Shown here one piece after another: positions 5,318 through 26,545 of a stretch of 32,000 nt of DNA. Source of the DNA: Candidatus Nanosynbacter lyticus (GTDB lineage: Bacteria; Patescibacteriota; Saccharimonadia; Saccharimonadales; Saccharimonadaceae); contig NZ_CP124549.1 of assembly GCF_030253515.1 (NCBI RefSeq), forward strand, positions 1-32,000, in the 5' to 3' direction. The notes under the pieces were generated by a model. The model had not been told where the DNA came from. It worked only from the letters and a program-made list of their open reading frames with translations, and did not search any database. Every line of letters begins with the position of its first letter. Within the stretch, counting starts at the first letter, position 1. The position numbers and the translations under genes are program-made.

Positions 5318-5808
5318 AACGCTACTGGCTCCCCACTTGCGGTTCGAATGGTGATGGTGTTATCCGCGATAGTAAACTGCACGACATACGCGGTGGTGTT
5401 CTTAACGGTCACGGTGAATGATATTACCCTTTCATCAAAAACTACATTAGTGATCGCTCCAGACACAAGGGTATCAGAGGTCGCATGTTTACTTACGTAG
5501 TGGCGAAGAATCGCTGCAACGAGTGAATTTTGAGTGTCATCATTGATGAATGCGGCCAGTGTTTTATTGGCGCTATTCTTCGTATCCCACCCGCTGAGGA
5601 TCAACTGCTGTGTTGTTGGCTGGCCACTGCCGCCGGTTGGTCCCTCGTACTGTTTACCCTCTGATTGGTTGTTATTAGGCGATTGCGATGGGGCCGATGG
5701 GTTGGTGGGTGGTAGCAGTAGAATGACGACAACGACTGAGGCGGAGAGTATGATGAATGATAACGTAGCAATAATTGCTGTTTTGTGTGCTAAAAGGAAC
5801 TCTCTCAC
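5314..5808 (-). CDS. Bitopic membrane protein, unknown function (T4SS-like block)
   Basis: The ORF track start is the GTG at 5850. I prefer the GTG at 5808, which forms a GTGA overlap with the upstream stop and has GGAGGG 8 nt upstream. There is one TM helix (AIIATLSFIILSASVVVVILLL) and a P/Q/G-rich linker. The C-terminal domain ends ISFTVTVKNTTAYVVQFTIADNTITI, which is similar to the C-terminus of the 2711-3520 product. Confidence 0.65.
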   Translation of the reverse strand: MREFLLAHKTAIIATLSFIILSASVVVVILLLPPTNPSAPSQSPNNNQSEGKQYEGPTGGSGQPTTQQLILSGWDTKNSANKTLAAFINDDTQNSLVAAILRHYVSKHATSDTLVSGAITNVVFDERVISFTVTVKNTTAYVVQFTIADNTITIRTASGEPVAL

Positions 5809-8800: not shown

Positions 8801-9020
8801 CAGCACCCTCGATGTTGGCATCTCGATTCGCCTGGTAGCCGAACTGATCATTATCAAGGCCATCATCTCGTAGACTAGCCTCTATCTGGTCGAGCGCTGC
8901 TTGCTCACCAGCATTCAGTTGCTCCGATGAATCATCATGTAGCTCAAACGGGTTTGCTCGCCCATCAGCATCAGGATCGGTCGTGGTGTCAAATCGCGGC
9001 GGTTTTGTTGCTGTTGCCAT
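5805..9020 (-). CDS. Large (1071 aa) membrane protein with C-terminal papain-like (C39-like) cysteine peptidase domain; T4SS-associated
   Basis: GGAGG lies immediately upstream of the ATG at 9020. The N-terminus is acidic and cytoplasmic. The first TM is GGIAGLMILFGVGGGLLASVFG, followed by several Ala/Gly-rich hydrophobic segments. In the C-terminal approximately 135 aa (about 5961-6368), the motif NIGDCGCAPTSMAAII ... QGGHIMFIRG fits a Cys/His papain-fold peptidase. It sits directly downstream of VirB4, the position held by ConG/Orf15-type proteins in Gram-positive systems. Confidence 0.8.
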   Translation of the reverse strand: MATATKPPRFDTTTDPDADGRANPFELHDDSSEQLNAGEQAALDQIEASLRDDGLDNDQFGYQANRDANIEGAAQKITDKENGTANQGPQSGFYQPEKSNRTMPKSQAAKLIALAKKRGGIAGLMILFGVGGGLLASVFGPASMLINLMENLTLGNDSSSVVSERRLAKNLANMITKPGVCNSKKMKCKAGTISNKGLRRLAKHGVVAADAKGKPLNLKRLGYPSGNPEKFIVDGKHIKAQDLPGFLSAKENRGLAAKVLGRSGAFNMRFRVWSSKYLAKKFFSKFKRIKRNGGAATWAEENKKNNRQNQSPTGSDGEKKKTPSEEYRADDKVNQADIEESGNKAKTHADKKLKRARRAGSAYTLATGACIAGHVPDFIVGGVAGAQMAALIPPIANIVLSPGSQQKASGLDPRFAMTAAGMEFVGTMLTSRHKGSNGKAESALDSPLLLSAMGVNKNKVPLSEKFAPGLKVRRHPAIQAMYQYKDATKGACNVIMSDQAMYTAMAVDAAATALAAPTLIGGIVKAVGDFAISQITSVIIGEITKAATSAAVQAIFKAIVGDNDIANAKGKEFGDMLGTSAGAFFAAANSAKHLPVLSKKGLSSFNQVRLANERQQREYDIASLSPFDTSSRHTFLGSLTFNLRQMMLQSGSYNNSFASIFSNIIHLPAMALSFGTAANASDNYSANYCGYAEDFGLKSEVNGRDVTPAVNFAGAGCTGFTKQQDDMGVEEAREILAKAGWIDESVDIEKEDDIEALVSKGYIKDNTPLKSFIESCSDVSSAEYSTNMTGCVLDESSTRQTTGKLSSGGYRPVVESENGKTSADTDFGSIDTADSRTLAAISVFLMDYQIQNSINGEDDEELVGSNQSNGASNSQTGENLDQIKMYYQSEEPWKNKKYGIGNIGDCGCAPTSMAAIISTVGNTTVDPEKMAEFFYQNDGQRGGEHCGSNWIWESKAQLFKDKFGITIKKVQPSAENASRGLSEGGLVLISVGGKTPFIQGGHIMFIRGKTADGKFLVGDPNKRSNTENKAGFAASEFHFGEKADKGKNEENDGTTGMWVITGPKKVGGRSS

Positions 9021-9035
9021 ATGCCTCCAATTATA

Positions 9036-10898
9036 CTACACTGCCCCGTACCCGCCGAGCGGTGTTTCTGATGGTAGTTGGTGTCGAGAGATCGGCGAGG
9101 TGTTGATGAGTTCGTATTCGGTGTCGCTAGCCTGGATCTGAATGTGGACGTGGTTTTGTCCGGCAAAGAATAACCCCTGCCCCACGGGGAAATTGGCAAG
9201 GCGTTTTTGCTCTTCCTCGGTTAGCTTAAAGACGCTGGAAAGGACATCAACGGCGCTGGTTGACTGCTTGAGTAGCAGCTGCATCGATGAGTTGGCGACA
9301 ATGGCACGGCCCATCTTGCTGCCCATAAAGTCCTCGACGTCCTGGGTGATGGTCGTGAGGCCGAGCTGGTATTTGCGGGCACGCTTGGCGAGAGAAAACA
9401 GGAAGTTGGCCGAGTCGTCGTAGCGCATCAGCTGCCACGCCTCATCGACGATGAGCATGCGTCGTTTTTGGTCGGTACGTGTAATGTTCCAGATGTGATT
9501 GAGCACAATATACATAGCGATCGGCCGCAGCTCGTCCTCGAGGTCGCGGATATTAAAGACCACCATGGTGTTATTGATATCAATATTTGACTGCTGGCTA
9601 AAGATACCAGCGAAAGTACCGGAGGTAAATTTGCGCAGCCGCTGAGCGAGGCTTGGCCCGGTGCCACCCATATGAAGCAGTGTATCGTAGAGATCGGCAA
9701 TGGTTGGTGGTGTCGAATGGTGGGTCAATGGGTCAGCGGTGATGCCGACGCGGGCGTACGTATCAATCAGTGCCTGGTCAATATCAGCCTCCTCGGCAGC
9801 CGTCAGTCCAGCGATAATCTGCCCGCCCGCCGTCGTCTGTGAGCCACCCAGCATCTGCCGCAGCAACCCGTGCAGCGTCACTAAATTCGCCCTCAGTGCA
9901 TCGTCTGCCTCATCGGTATCAATCACCCGCGGCAGATCAAACGGATTGATGCGGGTATCGCTGTTGAGGCTGAGTCGAATGTAGCTACCGCCAACGGCGT
10001 CGGACAATTTCTGGTATTCGTTTTCTGGGTCGATGATCACGATGTCCGAGCCAAGCATCATGCTGCGCAGCGCCTCGAGCTTGACCGTGAACGACTTACC
10101 GGCACCAGATTTCGCGAACACTACCATATTAGCATTCTCGAGGGAAAAGCGGTCAAAAATTACCAAGCCGTTGTTGTGCATATTGATACCATAGAGCACG
10201 CCCTTGCCGTCGGTCAGGTCGGCCGAGGTAAACGGAAAGCTGGTGGAAATAGCGCCGGTATTCATGTTGCGGCGAACCTGGAGCTGGTCGGTCAGCTGTG
10301 GAATAGTGCTATTGAGGCCCTGCTCCTGTTGAGCTGAGGCAACCTTAGAAAACACCAGCTGCTGGCCAAAAATTGTCTCGATCTTGTGTTGGATAAAGTT
10401 GAGCTCATCAATGCTGTCGGCATAAATCGTGATGTAAAGGCCAAAGCGGAAGAACTTTTCCGAGCCGATCTGTAGCTGATTGCGTAGTTCCTCGGCGTCC
10501 TGCAATGCCGCTTCCATGGCTGGGTCGCGCACCTTGCCCTTCTCGGAATTGATGCTAAGGCTGGCCTCGAGCTGAGTCACTTTCTTACGTAGGTTGTTGA
10601 GCACCACCTGGGTATCAACCGGGTAAATGAACATACTGATATCCAGCACCTCGTCGATGTTGATCACCGAGCTGAGCCAACCGGTGTATAGCTCGCGCGG
10701 ATACCCGTAGACGTACATGGTGCGGCCGTATTTTGAGCCGAGGCGGAAGTGGTCAGACTTGAGCTCGAGGCTGCTCGGAGCGATAAAGTCGCGCAAGGTT
10801 CTCACGCCAGTGAGAAAGGCCTGCTCAACCTCGGCCTGCTCGCGGGCCCGCTGTTGGGCGGCGATATCAATGGCGTCTAGCTTCTTTTTCCTAGCCAT
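9036..10898 (-). CDS. virB4: VirB4/TrsE-type T4SS ATPase (core and ATPase part)
   Basis: Walker A is FAKSGAGKSFTVK and Walker B is RRMLIVDEAWQLM. The middle region is typical of Gram-positive VirB4 (FIAPSSLELKSDHFRLGSKYGRTMYVYGYPRELYTGWL). The preferred start is the ATG at 10898 (MARKKKLD), with GGAGGAG 8 nt upstream. The frame stays open up to 10979, which is the ORF track start. Confidence 0.9.
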   Translation of the reverse strand: MARKKKLDAIDIAAQQRAREQAEVEQAFLTGVRTLRDFIAPSSLELKSDHFRLGSKYGRTMYVYGYPRELYTGWLSSVINIDEVLDISMFIYPVDTQVVLNNLRKKVTQLEASLSINSEKGKVRDPAMEAALQDAEELRNQLQIGSEKFFRFGLYITIYADSIDELNFIQHKIETIFGQQLVFSKVASAQQEQGLNSTIPQLTDQLQVRRNMNTGAISTSFPFTSADLTDGKGVLYGINMHNNGLVIFDRFSLENANMVVFAKSGAGKSFTVKLEALRSMMLGSDIVIIDPENEYQKLSDAVGGSYIRLSLNSDTRINPFDLPRVIDTDEADDALRANLVTLHGLLRQMLGGSQTTAGGQIIAGLTAAEEADIDQALIDTYARVGITADPLTHHSTPPTIADLYDTLLHMGGTGPSLAQRLRKFTSGTFAGIFSQQSNIDINNTMVVFNIRDLEDELRPIAMYIVLNHIWNITRTDQKRRMLIVDEAWQLMRYDDSANFLFSLAKRARKYQLGLTTITQDVEDFMGSKMGRAIVANSSMQLLLKQSTSAVDVLSSVFKLTEEEQKRLANFPVGQGLFFAGQNHVHIQIQASDTEYELINTSPISRHQLPSETPLGGYGAV

Positions 10899-11970
10899 GT
10901 CGTGCTCCTCCATATCCATGTGGCGACTCGCCCTGCCCCTTGCGGACATAGGTTGTCGCCAGTTCATCGGCACCAACACTGAGTGGCTGCTGTGGCGCCA
11001 CGTCGGGGTTGTATGAACTATAGAATAATTCGCCCAGCTGTTTGGTATTAAGCTGCGCGCTCTTTACGCCCATCTGAAACAGCCCGCTCATTACCGAATC
11101 AACTCGGTTCTTAATTTCATCCTTGGCCTTTTCGTAGGCGGTTTGTTCAATCTTGGTGACGGTGTTGTCTTTCTTGCCGCCGAAGAAGCTATCGAATAGA
11201 CCCTTGGCCTGCTGCTTGATAACTTGCATGTCGCCACTCTGATAATACGGCACAACGATATAAAAATCCTTATCCATAATATTGGCTTCTTGGGCGAGGA
11301 CATCGATGAAGTTGATGTAGTCATCCATCAGCACGTTCAGGAGCATATTGTCTTGGTTGCGGCGAATGTCAATCAGGCGGTCGATGTACGGCCCGATGTC
11401 AACGCGCCGTGAGCGAATGAGTACTTGAACCGGAAAATATAACGAGTTAAGGAAGTTTTGGTAGCTAAATTCGATTCCCTCACGCTCGCGGCCACTCATC
11501 AGGTCGAAGTTGATTGACTGACACTGAACAATCGCCCGAAAGCTGCCGTCATTCATGATGATCATGTTCTCGCGCATCTCAGAAAATAGCAGTGTGTTCT
11601 GGGTGCTGGTCGGGCCTTTTTGTTGAGGCTTTGCCTGGCCAGTCGGCTGCTTGGCGGGTTGTTGCGGGGTTTGCTGTGGTTGGTTGGGCTCGGGTGCGGA
11701 CGGTGGGTTGGGGGCTGGTTGTGCCACGGGTTGTGCGCTTGGCATCGGCTGTGGCTGGGCTGGCGCCTGCGGTAATTGCTGTGGCAGCGGGCTGAACTGA
11801 TCAGGGTACTGAGCGTACAGTGAGGTTGGTTCTGCGGAGACTGGGTCAGGCCCAGAGGCAATAACCCCCGGCATGGTTGGTGGATTTGACGCTGCACCAA
11901 ACGGTGGTGCAGCGGCTGCATCTGGTGGATAGTGATATGGTTGCTGTTGCTGATTTGGTTGCATAGACAT
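10891..11970 (-). CDS. P/Q-rich protein whose C-terminal ~230 aa resemble the N-terminal domain of long Gram-positive VirB4 ATPases (putative split-off VirB4 N-domain)
   Basis: AGGTGGG lies directly upstream of the ATG at 11970. Residues 1-125 are low-complexity P/Q/A. Residues from about 126 read MIIMNDGSFRAIVQCQSINFDLMSGREREGIEFSYQNFLNSLYFPVQVLIRSRRVDI...DYINFI...KDFYIVVPYY. The gene sits between the VirB3-like and VirB4 genes and overlaps virB4 by 8 nt. Confidence 0.6.
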   Translation of the reverse strand: MSMQPNQQQQPYHYPPDAAAAPPFGAASNPPTMPGVIASGPDPVSAEPTSLYAQYPDQFSPLPQQLPQAPAQPQPMPSAQPVAQPAPNPPSAPEPNQPQQTPQQPAKQPTGQAKPQQKGPTSTQNTLLFSEMRENMIIMNDGSFRAIVQCQSINFDLMSGREREGIEFSYQNFLNSLYFPVQVLIRSRRVDIGPYIDRLIDIRRNQDNMLLNVLMDDYINFIDVLAQEANIMDKDFYIVVPYYQSGDMQVIKQQAKGLFDSFFGGKKDNTVTKIEQTAYEKAKDEIKNRVDSVMSGLFQMGVKSAQLNTKQLGELFYSSYNPDVAPQQPLSVGADELATTYVRKGQGESPHGYGGARHG

Positions 11971-11975
11971 CCCAC

Positions 11976-12875
11976 CTAGTGAAGCGAAATCACGACTTCC
12001 TTATCATGTTCTTTTTGGATACGACCGGCCTCTCGTTGCAGTGAGGCGACCGACAGATCGCTGTGATTACGCGCTAGATCCATTATAGCAGGCGAGACGG
12101 GTGCTGTGCTAGGGGGCGCCTGGTCGGTGTGAGTCGTCGCGGTCGTCTGCTCGCTGATGGGCGTGATGATAGACTGCTGCATAGTTGGATAGGGGTTGAA
12201 GGTCGAGGTTTGTAGCGAGTAGGCTTGGTCGTCTTGGCTGTCTTGGGTGGTCTGGGTGGTTGGGGTAGTTTGGGCTCGCTGCATTTGCTGGACAATTTTA
12301 TCATGGCGTCTTTCGTCGGCTCGCTCAATGAGTGTTTCAAAGGCGCGGGCTGTCTTGCTACTTGGGTCGAGCGGGTCTTGGGCGGTTTGGGCCTCGTTGT
12401 ACCAATCCGCCTGCATCGAACTATTCATCACCGAGCTGTTTGGATTATCGACACCGCGCACCGACCAGCCGTGCGTGTCCACCAGCGTTGCCAGATACGA
12501 CAGCCGGCGATTGACCTCGGCCTGGTCATACCCCTTGCCGTATTGCTTTTCCTCAATCCGCGGGGCGATCACCTCGACCATTCGCTCAATGCCATCGGCT
12601 CGCCACAGTCGCTGCTTGGGCTTGAGGATGAACGAAATAACCGCTGCGAGGTACACCTCCATCGGCTGATCCTTGCGCAGCGGCAAGGCTAACGCTCCGA
12701 AAAACAGTGCAACCGGCACCGGGATAATCGCCAGCGGCGGCAGCACCGAGAACAGCCCCCACGCCAGCGCAATCATGCCGATCGCGACGATCAAGAAAAT
12801 AAACTGCTTGAAACTAAACGGCCCGAGCAGCTTGTCTTCAGCTTCCACATCCTGGGGAACTTTGTAGACAGCCAT
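11976..12875 (-). CDS. PrgI-family / VirB3-like small-TM protein with long C-terminal extension
   Basis: The N-terminus MAVYKVPQDVEAEDKLLGPFSFKQFIFLIVAIGMIALAWGLF plus a second TM helix and ...PMEVYLAAVISFILKPKQRLW match the PrgI-family pattern as I remember it. The gene is immediately upstream of VirB4-related genes. An additional approximately 190 aa includes a T/Q-rich tract. Confidence 0.72.
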   Translation of the reverse strand: MAVYKVPQDVEAEDKLLGPFSFKQFIFLIVAIGMIALAWGLFSVLPPLAIIPVPVALFFGALALPLRKDQPMEVYLAAVISFILKPKQRLWRADGIERMVEVIAPRIEEKQYGKGYDQAEVNRRLSYLATLVDTHGWSVRGVDNPNSSVMNSSMQADWYNEAQTAQDPLDPSSKTARAFETLIERADERRHDKIVQQMQRAQTTPTTQTTQDSQDDQAYSLQTSTFNPYPTMQQSIITPISEQTTATTHTDQAPPSTAPVSPAIMDLARNHSDLSVASLQREAGRIQKEHDKEVVISLH

Positions 12876-12884
12876 TGAGTATTA

Positions 12885-15543: not shown

Positions 15544-18500
15544 TTAGCTGGCGGTAGGTGGATTGCTGTTTCGATTATTGCGATTATTTTGATTATTTGG
15601 CGGTGCTGAAGGTGGGGATTGCGGTGGAGCTGGCCCTCTGCCTGTTCCGGCGACGAATGTTCGCCCCGTTGGGGTGTCTGATGGGACTGCCTCGGTGATA
15701 TTGTTAATTTCTACCGTAGAATTAATCGCATTTTTGACGTCATCTGCTGTTACGCCGCTCATGTCATGCGGTACTCGCAGCTCCTGAGGTTCGGCTACTC
15801 TATCGCTGTTTCGTATATTTTCAAGCTCTTTGCGCGCACTACCCGATATCGAGGTATTAATACGTTTATTGTCAAGCACTGAGGCTGCCCTCTCGGCGGA
15901 GACACCGACCATTTTCTGGCCACCCTTAGTGAATTCAGTTTCACCAGCGACCTTGATGGCACTTGATGTCTGTCGTGCCAATTTTTCATCACTTAATCCG
16001 CTGACCCCCTTGGCGGTCAGTTCGGCCATTTGTTGCTGGCTAAAGCTGACCGAGGTTGCTCCGTCCTGTTCCATCTGGTCGATAGCCGTTCTACCCATTT
16101 CAAACAGACCGGCATGGTCATCTTTCATTCTGGTAAGGGTTTCTGCCATGCGGCGGTTGCTGATGGTTCCACCACCCTGGAGATACTCGTACATTTGTTC
16201 GGCACCGCGCTTACCAGTTGACTCTAATTTCTTAAAGGCAATGTGTTTAAGTATCTCGTTGTCTCCAGCGCCTCTCAGTGCAGCGGCCGCATCGCCGTTG
16301 TACCGATAATCAAGCATACGCTCTGCTGTCTTGCGCTCTTCGTCATCAACCGCATCCTGACCTTCGGCAGCACTGCGAATACCATAATCTCCTCCGAGGA
16401 AGCGGTTATTTGCTAAGGCGCTCTCGTTAAATCTTTTGCTGAACCGAGATTTTCGATTTCTCCAGAATTTATCTAGGGCTCCGGTGCCCTCCCATGCCCC
16501 GGCCCGCATGAGGGCCTTGCGGCGCTGTCGTCGCTGCTTGCGGAATTTTTGCATCTCGCCAAGCCGTGAACTATCATACCTATCTTTTGCCCAGTTTCTG
16601 GCGCTGCCACCGAGACTACCGCCAGCGTTGTTGATGTGCTGACCGATCGCCCCGGCAACGTCGATAGCTTTCTTGAGGACACTCCACACGGCGATGAGTG
16701 GCAGGACTTTGATTAGCTCACCGACAATCTGCATGATCGTGTCATTTCCACCCCCGGCCTTAACGACAGCCCCCGCCAGTATGCCGCCACCGAACAGTAG
16801 GCCGATTGTCGGAAAGACCATGAGTAGTCCCACAAAGATTGAGCGCCATTTACTAAATAATTTTTCGGTATTTGGCAGCAGAAAGGCAACAAAAGCCAGC
16901 GGTGAGATGACGATGAGGATGATGATGAGCGCTTTGCGGGCGATTAACAGCACAGCGACGGTCGCCATAACAACTAGCCCAGAAACAAGCGCCCCAATCA
17001 AGACTGCGAGGGCGAGAATCCCGGCGGTGCCTGCGGCAAGGATGGTTAAGGCAAAGCCCCCCCATGTACCACGTCCTTGACCTGATTGAAAAATTTCATT
17101 TGCTCGGGTAATCTCGTCGCCAATGCCGCCAATGCCAGCACGCAGGCTATAGCCGAGGATGTTAGACAGGTCAACGGCAATTTGACAGATGTAAATTGAT
17201 ACGTTCACGAGGATTGCAGCGATGATAAGGCGAGGCAGCATCTTTTTAATGCCGTAGTTTGAGATACCAAAGCCAGTGAGCTGAGAGATAATGATCGCTA
17301 AGAACATAATAATGAACGCACCATTGGCAATATTGCGCATAATTCCCCAGGCTGCTTGCACCTCACCTCCAGAGGCGAGGCCCGGCTCAATCTTTAGGAA
17401 GTTATCGGCGATCATGGCAAAAGCCGCGTCTGAAATATCAGCCAAGAAATTAACGACTGGACAAATGAGCCAACCGAGGTCTTTGACGGCACACTCTGGC
17501 TTTTTCTCGTCGCCCCCGCTCTGGCCAGAGGGGGTGTCGGCGGAGATACCAGAGAGGGCGCTTTTTAGCTCACCATCGGAATAATTTGACTGTTTGGCGA
17601 TACACTTTATATATTCATCAGAACTCGCCACGGCACCACTTGACGGCATCTTATCCTTACAAGCGTTCATCCAGCTGTCAACTTGTTGTTTACATATTTG
17701 CTCCGCTGGCCCTCCGACGCCTCCGCCGTTTTTCTCGATACATTTTTTTAGGAGAGTGTCATAAACGGCCTTGCGGGTATTATCGGCGGCTTCGGTTTTT
17801 GCTGATTTTGCGGCTGCTTCAGCGTTGTCTGATGCCCACTGTGCAATCTCCGCACATGACATCTCTGTTTTTGCACCACCAGAAGGACCATAAGGCGAGT
17901 CAGCTCCATGAAACATACGAACCCTTTTACCTGCATCCGGGAGATAAAAATATCCATAAGCTGCCGTACTGTCAGTTAAAGCAACCGCTGTTTTTTTATT
18001 GCGCTGATCGGCCTTTATGTCATTACTTGCGGCGTCATCCCCGCTATCATATCCTCGCCACTCGGCCTTACAACCAGCGTTTTGGGCCGACAAGAGTGCC
18101 GCCATCGCCGTGGAATAATTAACCAATGCCGAGTCGAACTTTAGGCTTTTACCAGCCTTTTTTTCAAGAACCTGAATTGCGTACGTGCCCCTGTCCCTTG
18201 GTATATTCCACCTACCACCGCTGTACTCACCCTTGGTAATATTGCTAATACAGTCAAGGCCGGCGTTATCTCGCCACTCACCCTTTAGCGCGCAGAACAT
18301 GTCGGTAAAAGAACTGTAGCCAAATGTATCTCGTGTGGCGGACACTAGTTCTTTACAGCTAAACTGCCCATCGTCACCGTCGGCAACTGGACCGACGGTA
18401 GTAATAGTGGTGAAGCTGCCGCCCCAATCACCGCTGGCAATTCTTGCTGGGGTGAGTCCACTATCAAATCCTTGACGATGACTAATACAGTTGCTCATGG

Positions 18501-18684
18501 CCAACGCGAGAGAGCGCTGTTTGACTTGGGCGAGATATGGCGAATAATCAAGCCGCGCCCGAGCCGCGTTAGCGGTTGGCGACAGCGCAAAAAACGTCAT
18601 GAGCATCGGAACGACTAATAGTGCGGCCAGCCCAACCAAGGTAATGCGAATACGTCGATGCGGGGTCTTTTTTTGCGTAAGCAT
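15544..18684 (-). CDS. VirB6/TrbL-like polytopic membrane protein, paralogue A (1046 aa) with Cys-rich N-terminal exodomain
   Basis: The signal peptide is KKTPHRRIRITLVGLAALLVVPMLMTFFALSPTANA. An exodomain of about 400 aa carries about 14 Cys. The conserved element PECAVKDLGWLICPV precedes the TM core shared with paralogue B. The cytoplasmic tail of about 370 aa ends in a P/N-rich tract. Confidence 0.7.
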   Translation of the reverse strand: MLTQKKTPHRRIRITLVGLAALLVVPMLMTFFALSPTANAARARLDYSPYLAQVKQRSLALAMSNCISHRQGFDSGLTPARIASGDWGGSFTTITTVGPVADGDDGQFSCKELVSATRDTFGYSSFTDMFCALKGEWRDNAGLDCISNITKGEYSGGRWNIPRDRGTYAIQVLEKKAGKSLKFDSALVNYSTAMAALLSAQNAGCKAEWRGYDSGDDAASNDIKADQRNKKTAVALTDSTAAYGYFYLPDAGKRVRMFHGADSPYGPSGGAKTEMSCAEIAQWASDNAEAAAKSAKTEAADNTRKAVYDTLLKKCIEKNGGGVGGPAEQICKQQVDSWMNACKDKMPSSGAVASSDEYIKCIAKQSNYSDGELKSALSGISADTPSGQSGGDEKKPECAVKDLGWLICPVVNFLADISDAAFAMIADNFLKIEPGLASGGEVQAAWGIMRNIANGAFIIMFLAIIISQLTGFGISNYGIKKMLPRLIIAAILVNVSIYICQIAVDLSNILGYSLRAGIGGIGDEITRANEIFQSGQGRGTWGGFALTILAAGTAGILALAVLIGALVSGLVVMATVAVLLIARKALIIILIVISPLAFVAFLLPNTEKLFSKWRSIFVGLLMVFPTIGLLFGGGILAGAVVKAGGGNDTIMQIVGELIKVLPLIAVWSVLKKAIDVAGAIGQHINNAGGSLGGSARNWAKDRYDSSRLGEMQKFRKQRRQRRKALMRAGAWEGTGALDKFWRNRKSRFSKRFNESALANNRFLGGDYGIRSAAEGQDAVDDEERKTAERMLDYRYNGDAAAALRGAGDNEILKHIAFKKLESTGKRGAEQMYEYLQGGGTISNRRMAETLTRMKDDHAGLFEMGRTAIDQMEQDGATSVSFSQQQMAELTAKGVSGLSDEKLARQTSSAIKVAGETEFTKGGQKMVGVSAERAASVLDNKRINTSISGSARKELENIRNSDRVAEPQELRVPHDMSGVTADDVKNAINSTVEINNITEAVPSDTPTGRTFVAGTGRGPAPPQSPPSAPPNNQNNRNNRNSNPPTAS

Positions 18685-18781: not shown

Positions 18782-19759
18782 TTAGGAGTCGACACCGCTG
18801 TAGCCAGTAACCTCGTCGTCGACAATTTGCCACAGATCACCGTTCTTAACCACCCTGAAAAGAGAACCGGTAGTTACACCATTGGTAATCGTTGATTCAT
18901 AAACAAGCTGGAGGCCTTGCGTCGGTAGTGTTTCGCCAGTCTTTGGGTCCACATAGGGCTTGGCTTCTGCAAACCTTACCTTTAGTACCTTAAACATTTC
19001 GGAGCCGGGTACATTTTTTTGATAGCCGCTCTCTTCCTTCTTATCCTTAGCATCCAGGAGTGCCACAATAGTCTTTCTGGCGGCATATTCTGAAGTTGAT
19101 ATCTTCCCGCTCCGCAGCATATCATCTAGAGCAGACTTCCTTAGCTCAGGATTCCCATAAAATGCCGCAGATGTAACCATTCTTGCAAAGTCAGGATCCC
19201 ACGGACCAGTGTCAAAACCTGCAACCACGGGACCGAGTATTTTGGCTGCAACTTCTTCGGCGGAGTCTGTTTCCGATGCGGGCTCTGTGCAGTATTTGCC
19301 AGGCTTAACGGCCGCCCCCGACGGATTATATAAGTCATTATTTGGGCTTTTGGTTCTTCCCCATATCGTGTCCTTCTTAAGTGTCTCCCTATACGGCACT
19401 AAGCGCTTTTCTAGTGGAAGGTTGGCAAACCTCTCTGGGGTTATGTCCTTGAACTCCTCCCTGACTTGATCGTATTTCTCCTCGGCTAGATCCTTTGGAT
19501 CAACAGTCTCAGACGGTGATGGTGAGGCAGATGGTGACTCTGATGGGTCTAATGAAGCGCTTGATGATGGGCTTTTCTCTGGTACTGCTAAGCGATCACC
19601 CCCACCACAGCCCGCAAGGCCCACTACAACTGTAGCGCCGAGAGTAACCCCGGCTAAAGCCTTTTTAAGCTTATCCTTAGCCCTCTCAAGAAGAGACGGC
19701 TTGTCAAGAGACGGACCGTCATTTAATGAACTACTTGGGTCATGGTTGTATCCTTCCAT
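18782..19759 (-). CDS. Lipoprotein, unknown function
   Basis: The lipobox is VVVGLAG-C (LAGC) after a hydrophobic stretch. An S/P-rich linker (SPSSSASLDPSESPSASPSPSE) follows, then a globular domain of about 220 aa. The 30-aa N-terminal region before the signal is unusually long, so the start is uncertain. Confidence 0.72.
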   Translation of the reverse strand: MEGYNHDPSSSLNDGPSLDKPSLLERAKDKLKKALAGVTLGATVVVGLAGCGGGDRLAVPEKSPSSSASLDPSESPSASPSPSETVDPKDLAEEKYDQVREEFKDITPERFANLPLEKRLVPYRETLKKDTIWGRTKSPNNDLYNPSGAAVKPGKYCTEPASETDSAEEVAAKILGPVVAGFDTGPWDPDFARMVTSAAFYGNPELRKSALDDMLRSGKISTSEYAARKTIVALLDAKDKKEESGYQKNVPGSEMFKVLKVRFAEAKPYVDPKTGETLPTQGLQLVYESTITNGVTTGSLFRVVKNGDLWQIVDDEVTGYSGVDS

Positions 19760-19955
19760 AACGCTTGGAGTCCTTTCTCTGGCCGGTGGCCAGTCATAGT
19801 GTAGTTTTAACCCACCTCAGAGTAGATAATTGGAACTCTGAATAACATCATTGTAACACATTATGAATATTTAGCAATACCCCGCGGCAACAAAATAAAC
19901 AAAACAACCCTTATGCTTTAGAAAAACGGGTTGTTGGATAACGAAAATCTAATTC

Positions 19956-20033
19956 TGGCGCGCCCGACCGGATTCGAACCGGCGATCTCCTCCGTGACAG
20001 GGAGGCGTGATAGGCCAACTTCACTACGGGCGC
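19956..20033 (-). tRNA. tRNA-Asp(GUC): tRNA-Asp (anticodon GUC), CCA encoded
   Basis: The reverse complement is GCGCCCGTAGTGAAGTTGGCCTATCACGCCTCCCTGTCACGGAGGAGATCGCCGGTTCGAATCCGGTCGGGCGCGCCA. The acceptor stem is 7 bp. The anticodon stem is CCTCC/GGAGG with loop CTGTCAC. The T-arm is GCCGG-TTCGAAT-CCGGT. Confidence 0.95.
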
Positions 20034-20082
20034 ATAACTTTCCGTATGATAGCAAACTTTTATGGCTTTTTCAAGAAATCGT

Positions 20083-20111
20083 TTGCATTTTTCCCGCCAC
20101 TATTTTACAAT
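20083..20111 (+). promoter_or_regulatory. Putative promoter of the pilin operon (TTGCAT-17-TACAAT)
   Basis: TTGCAT lies at 20083-20088, followed by a 17-nt spacer and TACAAT at 20106-20111. The ATG of the first pilin gene is 19 nt downstream. Confidence 0.45.
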
Positions 20112-20130
20112 TTAGGGTAAGAGATCCGTT

Positions 20131-20508
20131 ATGACAAAAAGAAATATTTTCATCACCGCTATCTTTCTCGCAACCATTATCTGCGGCGTCGTGCTGTCTG
20201 GTATGCCTGCGTTCGCTGATACTGAATGCGGCGGCGCAAAGACCTCGATCATTAATTGTAGCGGTGCGACTGGTGATGCTGCTATTCTCGGTATCATCAA
20301 AATGGTTATCCAGATCATGACTGCTGGTATCGGCATCTTGGCGGTCGGTACGGTGATATACGGCGGTATTCTCTATTCTGCGTCTGGCGGTAGTCCAGAC
20401 AATATCAAAAAGGCCAAAGAGCTCTGGGTTAACACTGCCATCGGTCTTCTTATCTTTGCATTTTTTGTAGCCATCACTAATTTCCTGATTCCTGGGGGGG
20501 TGTTCTGA
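20131..20508 (+). CDS. VirB2/TrbC-like T4SS pilin paralogue P1
   Basis: The 125-aa product has a signal peptide ending PAFA-DT and a Cys pair (TECGG...INCSG). Two hydrophobic helices flank the loop YGGILYSASGGSPDNIKKAKELW. Confidence 0.8.
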   Translation: MTKRNIFITAIFLATIICGVVLSGMPAFADTECGGAKTSIINCSGATGDAAILGIIKMVIQIMTAGIGILAVGTVIYGGILYSASGGSPDNIKKAKELWVNTAIGLLIFAFFVAITNFLIPGGVF

Positions 20509-20966
20509 TGAAGCATATTGTGATCGCGCTGGGGCTGATGATCGCGGGGTCACTGATGCTGTCGGTGATTCAAGCAACGCCGGCCAGCGCGGCCTGTGGC
20601 GGCAACATCTTGACGCTCAAGCCGTGGTACGACGGGCTGACCAAGTCGGATTGTAATCTCAAAGCGATTGTCGACAATAACGATAAGCGCGCCCAAAACG
20701 ATCCGGACAATTACGCCACGCTCAATGGCTTTATCTGGCGGGCGATACTGAATGTTGTCGAGGATTTGTTGCAGCTGGCGGGCTTTGTGACGGTCGGCTT
20801 TGTGATATACGGCGGCTTTTTGTACTTGACGAGCAATGGTGAGCCGGGACAGATGGCCAATGGCATGAAAACGGTGATTAATGCGGCGATCGGCCTGGTG
20901 ATTGCTATCGCCTCGGTGGCGCTGGTGAATGTCGTGGCTGACGGATTGGGGTTGCCACGATCATGA
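20508..20966 (+). CDS. VirB2/TrbC-like T4SS pilin paralogue P2 (longest variable region)
   Basis: The start overlaps the P1 stop (TGATG). The 152-aa product has a signal peptide ending ASA-AC, a Cys pair, and a variable segment of about 65 aa. The conserved core is VIYGGFLYLTSNGEPGQMANGMKTVINAAIGLVIAI. Confidence 0.78.
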   Translation: MKHIVIALGLMIAGSLMLSVIQATPASAACGGNILTLKPWYDGLTKSDCNLKAIVDNNDKRAQNDPDNYATLNGFIWRAILNVVEDLLQLAGFVTVGFVIYGGFLYLTSNGEPGQMANGMKTVINAAIGLVIAIASVALVNVVADGLGLPRS

Positions 20967-21262
20967 TGCGATTTGTAGCCGGTGTATTGGGGTCGCCAGA
21001 TTCGCTGGGCATTCCGACGAACGGTGCTTCGGCGGATGCACTGGGCAACATCCTCAATACGGTGTATTTCTTTGCCGGGGCGATCGCGATTTTGATGTTG
21101 GTGCTGGCCGGTATCAATTACGCCAATTCGGGCGGCGACACCAACAAGCTCACCAAGGCGAAAAACACCATCCTTGGTACCGTTATCGGCATTATTATCA
21201 TCCTCTCCGCATTTCTCATTACTAACTTTGTCATTAGTGGCATGAAAGGATCGGCAATATGA
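20963..21262 (+). CDS. VirB2/TrbC-like pilin paralogue P3 (no obvious signal peptide)
   Basis: There is an ATGA overlap with P2. The 99-aa product has the core LAGINYANSGGDTNKLTKAKNTILGTVIGIIIIL. Its N-terminus (MMRFVAGVLGSPDSLGIPTNGAS) lacks a clear hydrophobic signal. Confidence 0.7.
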   Translation: MMRFVAGVLGSPDSLGIPTNGASADALGNILNTVYFFAGAIAILMLVLAGINYANSGGDTNKLTKAKNTILGTVIGIIIILSAFLITNFVISGMKGSAI

Positions 21263-21624
21263 AAAAACTCGTAGTCATTATCGGCGTGATAGCGGCGCTC
21301 ATTGCCCCGTTGGTAGTCACCTCAAATGTATCCGCCCAGAGTGTCGACATTTACGGCGCCTGCTCGGGCTCCAGTGGTGAAGTCTGTAAAAACCGTGGCG
21401 CGACGGTACAGCCACTGTTTAGGAACCTCATCAATGCTATCTTGCTCATCCTCGGCGCCATTTCTGTCATCATGATCATCATTGGCGGCTTTCAGTATGT
21501 GACCTCGGCCGGCGACTCTAATAAGGTTAAAACTGCCAAGTCGACCATTATGTACGCGGTGATCGGTGTCGCCGTAGCGCTTCTATCGTATGCCATTGTT
21601 GATTTTGTGTTTGGCAAAATATAA
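21259..21624 (+). CDS. VirB2/TrbC-like T4SS pilin paralogue P4
   Basis: There is an ATGA overlap with P3. The 121-aa product has a signal peptide ending VSA-QS and a Cys pair (GACSGSSGEVCKN). The core is IGGFQYVTSAGDSNKVKTAKSTIMYAVIGV. Confidence 0.82.
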   Translation: MKKLVVIIGVIAALIAPLVVTSNVSAQSVDIYGACSGSSGEVCKNRGATVQPLFRNLINAILLILGAISVIMIIIGGFQYVTSAGDSNKVKTAKSTIMYAVIGVAVALLSYAIVDFVFGKI

Positions 21625-21641
21625 GAAAAAAGGAGAAATGT

Positions 21642-22016
21642 ATGAAACGATATAGAAAAACCCTCGTAGCCGCCGTTTTGTCATTAGCGGTTGCTGTCGT
21701 GGCCGTCGTCATGCCGATCGCCCTGCCGTCCGCGTCGGCCCAATTTAAGAGCGGTTTGGATGCAGCTCGAACGGATGAGATGAGCACGAAGCCTATTGGC
21801 ACCACCATTGGCGAGGTGGTTAATATCTTTCTCTACTTCGTCGGTGCGGTGGCAGTTATCGTTGTGATCTGGGGCGGTTTTCAGTACATTACCTCGTCAG
21901 GCGATAGCCAGAAAGCGACCACTGCTAAAAACACCATCATGTACGCGGTGATCGGTATCGTTGTGGTGGTCATGTCGTACGCTATCGTTAACTGGGTCTT
22001 TGGCTTGTTTAAGTAG
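21642..22016 (+). CDS. VirB2/TrbC-like T4SS pilin paralogue P5
   Basis: An AGGAG SD is present. The 124-aa product has a signal peptide ending ASA-QF and no Cys. The core is WGGFQYITSSGDSQKATTAKNTIMYAVIGI. Confidence 0.82.
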   Translation: MKRYRKTLVAAVLSLAVAVVAVVMPIALPSASAQFKSGLDAARTDEMSTKPIGTTIGEVVNIFLYFVGAVAVIVVIWGGFQYITSSGDSQKATTAKNTIMYAVIGIVVVVMSYAIVNWVFGLFK

Positions 22017-22074
22017 CTAAATGATGATAGAATAACAGCTGAAACCATATCAAATAATAAACGAGGAATAAAGA

Positions 22075-22455
22075 ATGAACAAGTTAAAACTCATTGTTGT
22101 CGGCGTTGTGGCCACTCTGGCATTGGCATTTGCAACGGTCCCAGTAGCTCATGCAGACTACAACCTGGATAAGGGTATCAGTGACTCAAAGGGTGACCGG
22201 GTTGCCGAGAAGGTCGATGATCCACAGCAACTGGTCAAGGGTATCGTCAACGGTATTCTCTACTTCGTCGGTATCTTGTCAGTGATTATGTTGATCTGGG
22301 GCGGTATCCTTTACACGACTTCATCTGGTGACTCGAATAAGGTGACTACTGCTAAAAACACCATCATGTACGCAGTAATTGGTTTAGTGGTGGCGATCTT
22401 TGCCTATGCGATCGTTAACTTTGTTCTCACAACATCGCGCGGTGTAAGTTCATAA
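22075..22455 (+). CDS. VirB2/TrbC-like T4SS pilin paralogue P6
   Basis: A GAGGA SD is present. The 126-aa product has a signal peptide ending AHA-DY and no Cys. The core is WGGILYTTSSGDSNKVTTAKNTIMYAVIGL. Confidence 0.82.
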   Translation: MNKLKLIVVGVVATLALAFATVPVAHADYNLDKGISDSKGDRVAEKVDDPQQLVKGIVNGILYFVGILSVIMLIWGGILYTTSSGDSNKVTTAKNTIMYAVIGLVVAIFAYAIVNFVLTTSRGVSS

Positions 22456-22479: not shown

Positions 22480-22509
22480 CACCCCCGTTTATGGCGAGGG
22501 TGTTTTATT
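22480..22509 (+). terminator. Rho-independent terminator of the pilin operon
   Basis: The hairpin is CACCCCCG-TTTATGG-CGAGGGTG, an 8-bp stem with one C:A mismatch, followed by TTTTATT. It starts 25 nt after the P6 stop. Confidence 0.55.
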
Positions 22510-23916: not shown

Positions 23917-24301
23917 GCCGCACTAGCTGGTGCGGAAACACCAGGCGTGATAGCGACCAAACGATGTCGGCTCGCCGGTGAAGTGTCTCGGTAACGCCAT
24001 AGGCCCCGCCAATGATGATGACGATGTGCTGATCGGTATGATCGAGGACGAGCCGCGATAGTTCTGGCGAGCTCAGGTTGCGGCCGCGCTCGTCGAGGAG
24101 GATGACGAAGTCGTGCGGCTTGAGGCGAGACATCAGGCGCTCTGACTCGTCCTGGCGTGCTCTGTCGCCGATTTGGCCGGAATGTGGGATGATGATCATT
24201 TCTGCGGCGAATGGCGCTCTGAGGCGCTCTAAAAAGCGCTTAATGCCTGGTTCCACCCAGGGCTCGTGCCGCTTGCCGATGGTGAGAATAGTAATTTTCA
24301 T
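23849..24301 (-). CDS. rlmH: 23S rRNA (pseudouridine1915-N3)-methyltransferase RlmH (SPOUT)
   Basis: The 150-aa product begins [10 protein letters not shown] and contains IIIGGAYGV. The C-terminal [33 protein letters not shown] is a typical RlmH signature. There is an ATGA overlap with the upstream SGNH gene. Confidence 0.9.
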   Translation of the reverse strand: [150 protein letters not shown]

Positions 24302-25170
24302 GTGCGGGCTTTCGGTGGGGCGTTATTATCATGCAAGATGGCTTCGGCGGTTGCCTTGGCGATTTGGTGATGGATATAAGCGGTCGGATGACCGACGTCA
24401 TCACCCGTGGCTACCACACCAAGACCAAACGTGGCGCAAGCATCAACGTTCTTTGGCGGCTCGACCAAGGTGATCCGCGGTTCATGCATACTGGCCACAA
24501 CGTCGCGGATAGCTTGATTGACCGTCTCGATAAAGCTGGCGACAAAGTGGTCGGTATCGTTATTGATAATCGTTGGACAGATGTCGCGTGGCTGAATGGG
24601 CGTGGTGTAGAGATTGATGTATAGCTGGGCGTTGGGGGCATGTTCAAGAATGGCGCGGTAGGCTTGCTCGAGCGACTGACGATATTCGTCTGAGTACAGT
24701 CGGCGAAAGACATCGATATACATCTCGCTGCGCGTACCACATCGTCCGTGCAGACAGGCGTCGAACACTACGTTGAGATCAACCATATTGGCGCCAAGCG
24801 ACAGTGTGACGATATCGGTTTCGGGGCTAAGGGCGTTGATTTGCGGTGGCTGGTCGTCAAACTGCTGGTTAGAGATATGCTCTGGCCCGGCGCCACGACA
24901 GGCCACGAGGGTGATGTTACCCGAGGGAATGCCGAATGCTTCGAGTCGCCGCGCGTAAGCTTCGGGTGAGCGCCGGCACTCTTTTGTTGTGTCGTCGTAA
25001 CCCCCCAGCCCTGCCCCGCTGGCGACTGAATCACCCATGCCGACGACGTAGGTGTGCTTCGCCTGCTCGGGCGAGATGCTCGGGCGGCTGGACGCTGATA
25101 GCGCTAATGAAGCGAGGGCCGCTATCGTAGCGACCCCCCGTTTGGCTAATGTTTCTAATCTTTCTTTCAT
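24298..25170 (-). CDS. Secreted SGNH/GDSL-family hydrolase (lipase/esterase-like)
   Basis: The ORF track (to 25368) reads through two tRNA genes. I prefer the ATG at 25170 (MKERLETLAKRGVATIAALASLALSA, a signal peptide). The SGNH blocks are I VVGMGDSVASG, II ACRGAG, III SLGANM and V GDDVGHPT. Confidence 0.8.
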   Translation of the reverse strand: MKERLETLAKRGVATIAALASLALSASSRPSISPEQAKHTYVVGMGDSVASGAGLGGYDDTTKECRRSPEAYARRLEAFGIPSGNITLVACRGAGPEHISNQQFDDQPPQINALSPETDIVTLSLGANMVDLNVVFDACLHGRCGTRSEMYIDVFRRLYSDEYRQSLEQAYRAILEHAPNAQLYINLYTTPIQPRDICPTIINNDTDHFVASFIETVNQAIRDVVASMHEPRITLVEPPKNVDACATFGLGVVATGDDVGHPTAYIHHQIAKATAEAILHDNNAPPKART

Positions 25171-25181
25171 GATGTCGTATC

Positions 25182-25271
25182 TGGCGGAAGGGGAGGGATT
25201 CGAACCCTCGGTACGTGTTACCGCACGCCGGTTTTCAAGACCGGTACCTTCAACCACTCGGTCACCCTTCC
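25182..25271 (-). tRNA. tRNA-Ser(UGA): tRNA-Ser (anticodon UGA), CCA encoded
   Basis: The reverse complement is GGAAGGGTGACCGAGTGGTTGAAGGTACCGGTCTTGAAAACCGGCGTGCGGTAACACGTACCGAGGGTTCGAATCCCTCCCCTTCCGCCA. It has a long variable arm. The anticodon stem is CCGGT/ACCGG with loop CTTGAAA. Confidence 0.93.
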
Positions 25272-25294
25272 AATTAATCGTAGCGACTGGATTC

Positions 25295-25382
25295 TGGCGG
25301 AGAGAGAGGGATTCGAACCCTCGATGGGTTGCCCCATACCGCTTTTCGAGAGCGGCCAGTTCAACCACTCCTGCACCTCTCC
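25295..25382 (-). tRNA. tRNA-Ser(CGA): tRNA-Ser (anticodon CGA), CCA encoded
   Basis: The reverse complement is GGAGAGGTGCAGGAGTGGTTGAACTGGCCGCTCTCGAAAAGCGGTATGGGGCAACCCATCGAGGGTTCGAATCCCTCTCTCTCCGCCA. It has a long variable arm. The anticodon stem is CCGCT/AGCGG with loop CTCGAAA. Confidence 0.93.
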
Positions 25383-25391
25383 AAATAAAAA

Positions 25392-25468
25392 TGGTACACC
25401 CGGCACGATTCGAACGTACGACCTTTGGCTCCGCAAGCCAACGCTCTATCCAGCTGAGCTACGGGTGC
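25392..25468 (-). tRNA. tRNA-Arg(GCG): tRNA-Arg (anticodon GCG), CCA encoded
   Basis: The reverse complement is GCACCCGTAGCTCAGCTGGATAGAGCGTTGGCTTGCGGAGCCAAAGGTCGTACGTTCGAATCGTGCCGGGTGTACCA. The anticodon stem is TTGGC/GCCAA with loop TTGCGGA, so positions 34-36 are GCG. The acceptor stem has a G1:U72 wobble. Confidence 0.9.
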
Positions 25469-25575: not shown

Positions 25576-26106
25576 CTATAGCCTGATGATCCGAATGAGC
25601 TTCTCCAGTGCATCTGGCGCGATTTCTTGCATCGGTAGTCGTGCCCCCAGCATGTCGACGATGGTCTCGCCCTCGGCCTCAGAAAAATAGATGGTCAGTG
25701 CCGGTGAGAACCGCTTGACCGGCAGTAAAATTGCCGAGTGCTGATCGCCGTCTTGCCCCAGCCCAAAGGCTCGAAATTCACTAAAATCATACAAGCGGTC
25801 GGCGACGTAAACCCCCTTGGGACTGATGGCGTAATTGACCATCACTGATGGCTTGGATCGAAGTAGTACGAGCGCCACCGCCATAATCGGCAGCAAAATC
25901 GCGAATGTCCAGCTATTAAAAACAAAGATCGCCAGCGCCATCAGGGCAAGCACTACGAAACCAACAGCAATATACCAGCCAGTCGTGCGGTGGGCCTGCA
26001 CGCCCTCAGGAGCTTGCCAGGCGATGGGCTGCGATAAGTCAGTCATCGGCTGGGCCGCGTCTTGTTGGGTGTTTTCGGTGTCGGTTGCGTGTGGCTGCTC
26101 TTCCAT
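25576..26106 (-). CDS. Membrane protein with two TM helices and a PH-like C-terminal domain, unknown function
   Basis: The ORF track start (26169) would overlap the pilin P7 gene, so I prefer the ATG at 26106 (MEEQPHATD). The hydrophobic hairpin is WYIAVGFVVLALMALAIFVF / WTFAILLPIMAVALVLL. It is followed by YAISPKGVYVADRLYDFSEFRAF, a pattern reminiscent of bacterial PH-domain membrane proteins. Confidence 0.6.
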   Translation of the reverse strand: MEEQPHATDTENTQQDAAQPMTDLSQPIAWQAPEGVQAHRTTGWYIAVGFVVLALMALAIFVFNSWTFAILLPIMAVALVLLRSKPSVMVNYAISPKGVYVADRLYDFSEFRAFGLGQDGDQHSAILLPVKRFSPALTIYFSEAEGETIVDMLGARLPMQEIAPDALEKLIRIIRL

Positions 26107-26137
26107 ATGTCTAGTATACCACGAGCGGTATGATCTG

Positions 26138-26545
26138 CTATACGTCGGTAGAATTACCGCCAAGACCAATTACGGTATTGAGGACAAATTGAATGATGGC
26201 GTAAGCAAATAGGGCGACGAGCAGACCAATGACGGCATAGAGAATGGTGTTCTTTGCCGAGGTGACGGCGTCTTTGTTGCCGCTAGAAACAACGTAGCGA
26301 AAACCACCAAAAATCAGCATCACCACAGCGAGGATACCGATAAAATAGAGCATGATGTTGATAATTTTTTTCACCAACGAGCTGTCACCGTTAGTTAAGT
26401 TGGTTGGCACGCCGTCGCCACGCGCATCATTGATGCCACGAGTGACGCCGCCCTCGCCGAGCGCGAACGCTGGAGTGCTCAAAACTACCGTGCCGACACC
26501 GATGGTCAGCATGATGCTAACGATACCTGCGAAAAACCTCTTCAT
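26138..26545 (-). CDS. VirB2/TrbC-like T4SS pilin paralogue P7 (unlinked copy)
   Basis: The preferred start is the ATG at 26545 (MKRFFAGIVSIMLTIGVGTVVLSTPAFA-LG); the ORF track starts at 26623. The core FGGFRYVVSSGNKDAVTSAKNTILYAVIGLLVALFAYAI is closest to P4-P6. Confidence 0.8.
   Translation of the reverse strand: MKRFFAGIVSIMLTIGVGTVVLSTPAFALGEGGVTRGINDARGDGVPTNLTNGDSSLVKKIINIMLYFIGILAVVMLIFGGFRYVVSSGNKDAVTSAKNTILYAVIGLLVALFAYAIIQFVLNTVIGLGGNSTDV

Follow-up and report, generated by a model that had tools for sequence, protein, structure and literature searches.

The first 32,000 nucleotides (nt) of contig NZ_CP124549.1 (assembly GCF_030253515.1, Candidatus Nanosynbacter lyticus), hereafter referred to as the window, carry a tandem array of six small genes, P1 to P6, which encode proteins related to the VirB2/TrbC pilins of type IV secretion systems (T4SSs), together with a lone seventh gene of this family, P7. 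The array locus is already in the literature, and the novelty of the finding is low. The same array in Nanosynbacter lyticus TM7x was described, and compared with the pertussis toxin locus, by McLean et al. (2020; PMC7427843), the proteins were called pilins by Wang et al. (2023, Cell; PMC10633639), with SEML1_0014-0019 as the array of Ca. Southlakia epibionticum ML1, and Quinonero-Coronel et al. (2025, Microb Genom; PMC12102498, of which passages are cited here and below) list 441 VirB2 arrays, with 2 to 11 genes each, from 383 assemblies of Patescibacteria. Few envelope machines have been shown to be needed by Saccharibacteria for life as epibionts, and the T4SS with its pilin array belongs to them; reviews single the system out as a striking T4SS newcomer (PMC12857230, PMC11665869).

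The array and its products

The array comprises the following features, the genes being those of the open reading frame (ORF) list, with product lengths in amino acids (aa).

20082..20111, + strand: promoter-like site TTTGCA-18-TACAAT
20131-20508, + strand: P1, 125 aa, 378 nt
20508-20966, + strand: P2, 152 aa, 459 nt
20963-21262, + strand: P3, 99 aa, 300 nt
21259-21624, + strand: P4, 121 aa, 366 nt
21642-22016, + strand: P5, 124 aa, 375 nt
22075-22455, + strand: P6, 126 aa, 381 nt
22480..22509, no strand assigned: candidate terminator, a GC-rich hairpin followed by TTTTATT

The initial annotation of this DNA placed six adjacent, co-oriented genes at 20131-22455, and the ORF list has each of them at the claimed position. 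The overlaps, and the spacers with Shine-Dalgarno sites, can likewise all be read in the DNA as described there: P1 and P2 are joined by TGATG, the P2/P3 and P3/P4 junctions are ATGA overlaps, and spacers of 17 nt (with an AGGAG Shine-Dalgarno site) and 58 nt (with GAGGA) precede P5 and P6, whose sites are the strongest of the array. The promoter-like site, a pattern match from a consensus scan, lies 20 nt 5' of the P1 start in the divergent intergenic region after tRNA-Asp. An ORF that sits over this tRNA (19931-20134 on the plus strand, tRNA at 19956-20033 on the minus strand) is not a gene. The hairpin, obtained from a pattern scan and folding, is located 25 nt past the P6 stop between the convergent P6 and hsp20 genes; the pattern scan assigned it to the minus strand, folding of the plus strand gives a 5+4 bp stem followed by UUUUAUU, and the z-score is not significant. 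It is likely to act as a terminator shared by P6 and hsp20.

Family membership was assessed with hidden Markov models (HMMs). The gathering threshold of PF18895 (T4SS_pilin), 26.6 bits, is reached by all six proteins, with P1 exactly at the threshold (26.6 bits) and higher scores for P2 (38.0), P3 (40.2), P4 (42.0), P6 (49.8) and P5 (56.1). P5 also passes the threshold of PF04956 (TrbC/VirB2; 27.9 bits) with 31.1 bits, while P6 (26.7), P3 (23.5), P4 (19.3) and P2 (11.0) give sub-threshold scores and P1 no match. The VirB2/TrbC-like call of the initial annotation, which had been made dependent on HMM similarity to T4SS pilin families, is thus supported. Since all six proteins reach the PF18895 threshold and the layout recurs in dozens of genomes, the genes are not chance ORFs. 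The two helices with a short polar loop that characterize PF18895 proteins are present in the hydropathy profiles and in an AlphaFold2 (AF2) model of P5. This model, built on 40 sequences, has helices at 52-83 and 89-123 with a five-residue loop between them (predicted local distance difference test score, pLDDT, 83-88), and the predicted fold of P5 is accordingly a two-helix hairpin.

A further similarity is to NCBIfam NF045849, a model for the Mbov_0395/MMCAP2_0565 'pilin-like conjugal transfer protein' of integrative and conjugative elements (ICEs) of Mycoplasma. Its cut-off of 40 bits is passed by P5 (42.9) and P6 (45.8), whereas P4 (36.6), P7 (33.8), P2 (28.6) and P3 (28.0) stay below it and P1 has no match; the model is of the 'equivalog' type and meant for ICE proteins, and membership of the window pilins is not claimed. 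The likeness lies in an 80-residue two-helix core and in the monoderm (Mollicutes) origin of the conjugative element, but the Mycoplasma protein is encoded by a single gene on a mobile element and the proteins described here by a chromosomal six-gene array. In a published VirB4 phylogeny, the patescibacterial system adjoins the MPF-FATA class, which includes Tenericutes. Monoderm T4SS classes were stated to lack VirB2 homologues (PMC12102498). The NF045849 match hints, contrary to that statement, that VirB2-like pilins may exist in monoderm systems of the MPF-FATA type. The HMM link to the Mollicutes ICE family was not found in the cited passages on these arrays, and a literature search on the function of Mbov_0395 found nothing relevant. 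P6 had no tblastn match among 72,556 plasmids.

The likeness to the TrbC/VirB2 conjugative pilins (T-pilus, RP4, pKM101) extends to the leader, the two hydrophobic helices and the short polar loop containing Lys, and as in the diderm systems the pilins are encoded together with VirB3, VirB4 and VirB6 homologues. The array differs from those systems in its monoderm host, in having six to seven paralogues as opposed to one, and in VirB5, since family scans of the window proteins detected no VirB5-like tip protein. Two other types of surface filament were considered and rejected. Type IV pilus pilins do not fit because the class III leader (G|F/M-T-L-x-E) is absent, the leaders have AxA ends instead, and no type IV pilin family was matched; the Pam pili are a different and unrelated Ig-fold system.

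With respect to architecture, the common plan put forward in the initial annotation, consisting of a signal peptide followed by two helices in P1, P2 and P4-P6, with P3 lacking the leader, agrees with the hydropathy profiles and with leader ends read by eye from hydropathy and sequence. P1, P2 and P4-P6 each have a hydrophobic N-terminal leader followed by two more hydrophobic stretches, and the predicted leaders end in AxA-type sequences (P1 AFA, P2 ASA, P4 VSA, P5 ASA, P6 AHA). P3 has two hydrophobic stretches only and no signal peptide, and an upstream extension of its ORF is impossible. The mature N-terminal part has a pair of Cys residues in P1, P2 and P4, whereas P3, P5 and P6 lack Cys, as had been noted; P1 has a third Cys within the leader. 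The P1 pair is found in CGGAKTSIINC after the leader, and the protein carries the C-terminal motif NFLIPGGVF. In P2, the leader is followed by a 47-aa N-terminal segment with the pair in C..LTLKPWYDGL..C and then by the two-helix core, whereas in P3 this core follows a short tail at the N-terminus that bears the conserved motif D.(L/I)G(I/V)P. P4 has the pair in CSGSSGEVC after the leader, followed by a core of the same class (class D, see below) as those of P5 and P6, which are without Cys and each have their own Shine-Dalgarno site. The conserved loop motif of the initial annotation (GG-F/I-x-Y-x-x-S-x-G-D/E...K...AK..I) holds only approximately, with AG for GG in P3, S at the D/E position in P1 and no AK in P2. 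Seven alignment columns are invariant across all six proteins, and pairwise identity among the paralogues is 24-49%; for published arrays, a mean within-array identity of 25% and a maximum of 54% were given (PMC12102498).

Subfamily order and strain variation

A genome scan with an alignment of P4-P7 as the query returned 80 species-level loci. In an HMM scan of the ORFs from the scanned loci, 52 of 87 sequences had six pilin genes in tandem, with recurring product sizes of about 125, 145, 95, 125, 125 and 130 aa, and usually a lone pilin gene encoded on the other strand a few kb further downstream. The pilins were divided into subfamilies A (P1-type), B (P2-type), C (P3-type) and D (the class of P4-P6), for which separate HMMs were made. 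With these, 25 of the 60 loci that were both distant and complete showed precisely the order A-B-C-D-D-D...d, and in most of the other array-bearing loci the sole deviation is a different count of D-class genes (2-6) or a fusion of B and C. The P1, P2 and P3 types occur in one copy each, always as the first, second and third gene.

The same order emerges from other comparisons. The best matches of the window P1 and P2 are at the same array position in 38/38 distant arrays, and in a label-free neighbour-joining (NJ) tree of 234 pilins near-pure clades were obtained for positions 1, 2 and 3 (F1 1.00, 0.97 and 0.94, respectively), the P1 orthologues forming a pure clade across 39 arrays. For P3-P6, best-hit orthology is confounded by the P6 class, which draws all matches, and the tree and the subfamily HMMs were used instead. 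Relatives of P5 from other species in the scan share about 35-50% identity with it.

Orthologues also retain the features by which the paralogues differ. Most of 24 aligned P1 orthologues have CGGxxTSIIxC and the C-terminal NFLIPGGVF, most aligned P2 orthologues conserve C..LT(L/F)(K/P)(P/A)WYxGL..C across species, and P3 orthologues are all leaderless, 87-107 aa long, with a short D.(L/I)G(V/I)P tail. The possibility that P3 is a truncated or mis-started gene was discarded, as a leaderless third gene of about 95 aa is conserved in at least 36 species. The initial annotation had located the divergence of the pilins in their N-terminal segments; these segments do differ between paralogues, but they are conserved between orthologues of different species and are not fast-evolving.

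In six environmental Saccharibacteria loci, the second pilin gene is fused in frame to the third, giving a protein of 229-249 aa with two pilin domains, collinear with P2 plus P3 of the window. The fusion ORFs are:

L025, 9252-10001: second domain D-class
L034, 8815-9519: second domain P3-type
L037, 8899-9606: second domain P3-type
L043, 8878-9603: second domain P3-type
L061, 5188-5877: second domain P3-type
L069, 8821-9522: second domain P3-type

The second domains were classified with the subfamily HMMs. The existence of such fusions explains how a leaderless P3 can have the same topology as its neighbours, and argues that P2 and P3 may be adjacent in the assembled structure. A programmed frameshift joining P2 and P3 in the window was considered, for which no evidence was found, the fusions elsewhere being simple in-frame ORFs.

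The arrays of Quinonero-Coronel et al. resemble the present one in their tandem PF18895/PF04956 genes near virB4 and dnaA and in low within-array identity. Its authors regard the copies as paralogues that vary and put forward adaptation to host strains as a possibility (PMC12102498), whereas here they fall into fixed subfamilies. The A-B-C-D order, the leaderless third gene, the B-C fusion and variability restricted to P6 were not found in the cited passages of PMC12102498. The Southlakia locus SEML1_0013-0024 has the same order, with a VirB6-like gene (minus strand), six pilin genes of which the third is short, hsp20 (minus strand), comFC and a lone pilin gene (minus strand). Its six array genes are 399, 558, 312, 381, 384 and 417 nt long and follow the VirB6-like SEML1_0013 on the plus strand, and PF18895 is annotated in each of the five Table S2 rows retrieved for them (PMC10633639). 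Both loci belong to the same class of organism and the same oriC-proximal T4SS. Southlakia represents another genus-level lineage with slightly different gene lengths, and the two were compared by gene order and sizes.

The ratio of nonsynonymous to synonymous substitution rates (dN/dS) was computed per region and the array was compared between strains, both of which had been proposed along with the initial annotation. Against close relatives, whole-gene dN/dS is 0.02-0.18 (0.04-0.14 for P4), and the values for the N-terminal segment are always below 1, the highest being those of P6 (0.30-0.66); the genes are under purifying selection. Over 20 kb, a sliding-window comparison with ten close genomes gave a background nt identity of 91-100%, with drops at three places: the VirB6-like gene, ORF 18782-19759 and P6. 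The VirB6-like gene is mosaic and hypervariable between strains (64-100% nt identity), and the lipoprotein-like ORF 18782-19759 shows 0-69% identity; no other stretches of the 20 kb vary as much between strains, and both are candidates for host-facing components. P6 is 72-77% identical at the nt level to its counterparts in three genomes (L009, L010 and L012), inside flanks of 91-97%, and its dS is 1.5-2.1 as compared to 0.1-0.4 in the neighbouring genes. P1-P5 are no hot spots, diverging between strains at the background rate. As judged from these comparisons, strain-level allele replacement among the array pilins is confined to P6. Turnover combined with diversifying selection, as expected for antigenic variation, is not what the array displays: dN/dS is low, the order is fixed, and only P6 is replaced.

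Possible function of the array

We consider it rather probable that the six products are not interchangeable variants but fixed subunits, none of them redundant, of a single heteromeric structure associated with the T4SS. This structure would most likely be a short pilus, or a conduit that spans the cell wall, at the site where the cell touches its actinobacterial host. The fixed order, the low dN/dS values and the restriction of replacement to P6 are the reasons for preferring fixed subunits to an antigenic cassette. Among the options raised in the initial annotation, major/minor specialisation or a heteropolymer fits the orthology, the selection data and the published transposon insertion sequencing (Tn-seq), whereas diversification is unsupported for P1-P5 and plausible only for P6. 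In Southlakia, SEML1_0014-0019 each scored GD/ES/ES in Tn-seq, and only for this patescibacterium is it known that the array is required for growth of the epibiont (PMC10633639).

If the products are fixed subunits, a single promoter 5' of P1 would drive the operon, with translational coupling of P1-P4 and use of own strong Shine-Dalgarno sites by P5 and P6. By analogy with established VirB2/TraA pilins, P1, P2 and P4-P6 would enter the membrane via Sec and be cleaved at the AxA sites, and P3 would insert as a leaderless hairpin with its N-terminus outside, since this topology is required where P3 is fused behind P2 in other lineages. The VirB4/VirB3/VirB6 machinery may then pull the hairpins from the membrane and assemble them, in line with the extraction by VirB4 and the polymerisation established for those pilins. 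Specialised roles as initiator, tip or adaptor could fall to P1, P2 and P3, of which P1 and P2 have conserved N-terminal caps capable of disulfide formation, the P4-P6 class would form the bulk, and P6 would be the strain-variable and probably most exposed subunit.

Several points weigh against this interpretation. Transposon insertions in an operon can be polar, so that only the essentiality of the last gene is unambiguous. The filaments solved from Mycosynbacter are Pam pili, other filaments described from Saccharibacteria are type IV pili, and in the literature there is no reported extracellular VirB2-type filament of these proteins in this group. A profile of 40 pilins searched against all PDB sequences returned only transmembrane helices of MacB and designed coiled coils, which are spurious, hhalign of this profile with Agrobacterium tumefaciens VirB2 (sequence verified against 8cue) gave a probability of 0.2 over 5 aligned columns, and the best Foldseek match of the P5 model in the PDB had E=1.7. 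Profile and fold searches thus demonstrated no similarity to T4SS pilins of solved structure, among them VirB2 (8cue/8exh), and the VirB2 link rests on the HMMs and the gene context; the two-helix hairpin is also a low-information fold. The subfamily HMMs were trained on the same loci that they classified, which leaves the NJ tree as the independent support for the order, and in that tree the orthology of P4, P5 and P6 is not separated (F1 0.56-0.66). Leader cleavage, topology, disulfide formation and assembly are each an inference.

A different role, which we regard as unlikely, is that the hairpins stay in the cytoplasmic membrane or the cell wall zone, where they would make up or line the translocation channel or stabilise VirB6 or VirB3. 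Each protein consists essentially of two transmembrane helices, pili are normally absent from monoderm T4SSs (PMC12102498), and the lack of both a VirB2-type filament in Saccharibacteria and a detectable VirB5-like tip protein in the window would suit such parts. The HMM kinship, however, is to the pilus-forming TrbC/VirB2 proteins, and the conserved secreted Cys-pair segments of P1 and P2, as well as the strain-variable segment of P6, suggest exposure outside the membrane. Furthermore, a tube-like structure of unknown composition is reported from cryo-electron tomography of Mycosynbacter at the interface between parasite and host.

It is improbable that the array is a variation cassette in which the paralogues are alternative major pilins for antigenic variation or for matching host strains, and P6 and the D class are the only candidates for which such a role is plausible. 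Proposals of this kind exist for Bartonella and Anaplasma with their VirB2 paralogues and, as a suggested adaptation to host strains, for Patescibacteria (PMC12102498). The paralogue identity of just 24-49%, the P6 replacement between close strains, the dN/dS maximum in the P6 N-terminal segment and the variation in D-class gene count from 2 to 6 among species point in this direction. But P1, P2 and P3 are single-copy, order-fixed and monophyletic across species, their supposedly variable N-terminal segments are kept between orthologues, all dN/dS values are well below 1, and P1-P5 diverge at the genomic background rate. Neither repeats nor silent cassettes accompany the genes, which form a single translationally coupled operon, and the essential scores of all six Southlakia orthologues are a poor fit to redundancy. 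The tandem diverged virB2 copies beside the T4SS of Bartonella and Anaplasma phagocytophilum, which are read as antigenic or host-range variation with strain-specific turnover (cited in PMC12102498), look similar, but unlike in those arrays three of the subfamilies here are ancient, occur in single copy and evolve under purifying selection.

McLean et al. (2020) originally read the proteins with Sec signals as T4SS substrates that assemble like the subunits of pertussis toxin and are exported to the host. This reading draws on a ptx/ptl-like arrangement, in which T4SS genes flank four to six small genes with signal peptides, but is very improbable and was rejected, as two hydrophobic helices dominate all six proteins, which are mostly transmembrane helix and are matched by pilin HMMs, Pfam gave no toxin or ADP-ribosyltransferase family at E<=1, the similarity cited to pertussis S1 is 11% identity (PMC7427843), and P3 has no signal peptide.

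Returning to fixed subunits of a heteromeric structure, a more elaborate proposal can be made, which we offer tentatively: P1-P3 might nucleate, cap or anchor the structure, with P2 and P3 as neighbours, P4-P6 might build the shaft, with P6 facing the host, and ancestry might be shared with the Mycoplasma ICE pilin-like protein. To our knowledge, such a division of labour has not been described for any T4SS. If the ancestry is indeed shared, VirB2-like pilins would be native to monoderm MPF-FATA systems and not borrowed from diderms. The comparative results sharpen the question, in that the copies appear to be specialised and fixed with one of them (P6) strain-variable, and they may serve as a guide to genes for experiments.

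The lone pilin gene and the surrounding region

The other features of the region are as follows.

3507-4853, - strand: lysozyme and CHAP hydrolase
5805-9020, - strand: 1071-aa protein with a C39-like domain
9036-10979, - strand: VirB4-type P-loop ATPase, 647 aa
10891-11970, - strand: TraC-like ORF, 359 aa (PF26593 in existing annotation of related loci)
11976-12875, - strand: PrgI/VirB3-like protein
12885-15518, - strand: 877-aa protein of the T4SS cluster, no family match
15544-18684, - strand: VirB6/TrbL-like polytopic protein, 1046 aa (PF04610, E=0.002; PF19590 TrbL_3 annotated in related loci)
18782-19759, - strand: lipoprotein-like ORF, contains LAGC
26141-26545, - strand: P7, D-class lone pilin, 135 aa from the second ATG (PF18895, 37.0 bits)

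P7 is located 3.7 kb downstream of the array on the opposite strand, and a 197-aa ORF (25576-26169, minus strand) without a family match begins inside its 3' end. Most related loci have a lone pilin at the same relative position downstream, usually on the opposite strand. The Southlakia counterpart of P7, SEML1_0024, scored NE in Tn-seq, unlike the six array genes (PMC10633639).

The T4SS core at 9036..12875 (PF19044, PF12846 and PF12666) is collinear with SEML1_0008-0010. The VirB6-like gene runs divergent from the pilin operon, and the pilins are 1.4 kb from it and about 9 kb from virB4/prgI, the lipoprotein-like ORF and tRNA-Asp standing between the T4SS cluster and the operon. With virB4 six ORFs and one tRNA away, the locus has the tandem PF18895/PF04956 genes (at least two) within fewer than about 20 genes of virB4 by which such arrays are defined. 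On the 3' side, the array is followed by hsp20, a gene for a ComF-type phosphoribosyltransferase and rlmH. Position 1 of the window is the first nt of the dnaA start codon, and dnaN comes next (1-2709), so that no more than about 22 kb separate the T4SS and the pilin operon from the presumed origin of replication; oriC proximity of such loci was already reported for Patescibacteria (PMC12102498). The complete 839.6-kb genome CP039997.1, which is that of Saccharibacteria HMT-488 strain CM010, co-cultured with Arachnia propionica, encodes a protein identical to P5, as do contigs from oral metagenomes. The pilin operon belongs to a chromosomal, oriC-proximal, monoderm-type T4SS of Saccharibacteria, in an oral lineage close to HMT-488.

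Some minor observations concern the genes around the array. The VirB4 function is apparently split over the ORFs 10891-11970 and 9036-10979, which overlap by 89 nt as listed, and Southlakia has the same two-gene arrangement (SEML1_0009 and SEML1_0008). The C-terminal third of the 877-aa gene (12801-14000) has no detectable nt match in L009 and is 84-99% identical in the other nine close genomes, which makes it a further segment of the cluster that varies between strains. The longest ORF for a GDSL lipase (24298-25368, minus strand, 356 aa, GTG start) crosses two tRNA-Ser genes on the same strand (tRNAs 25182-25468); its true start probably lies further downstream, and some related genomes call a 290-aa product.

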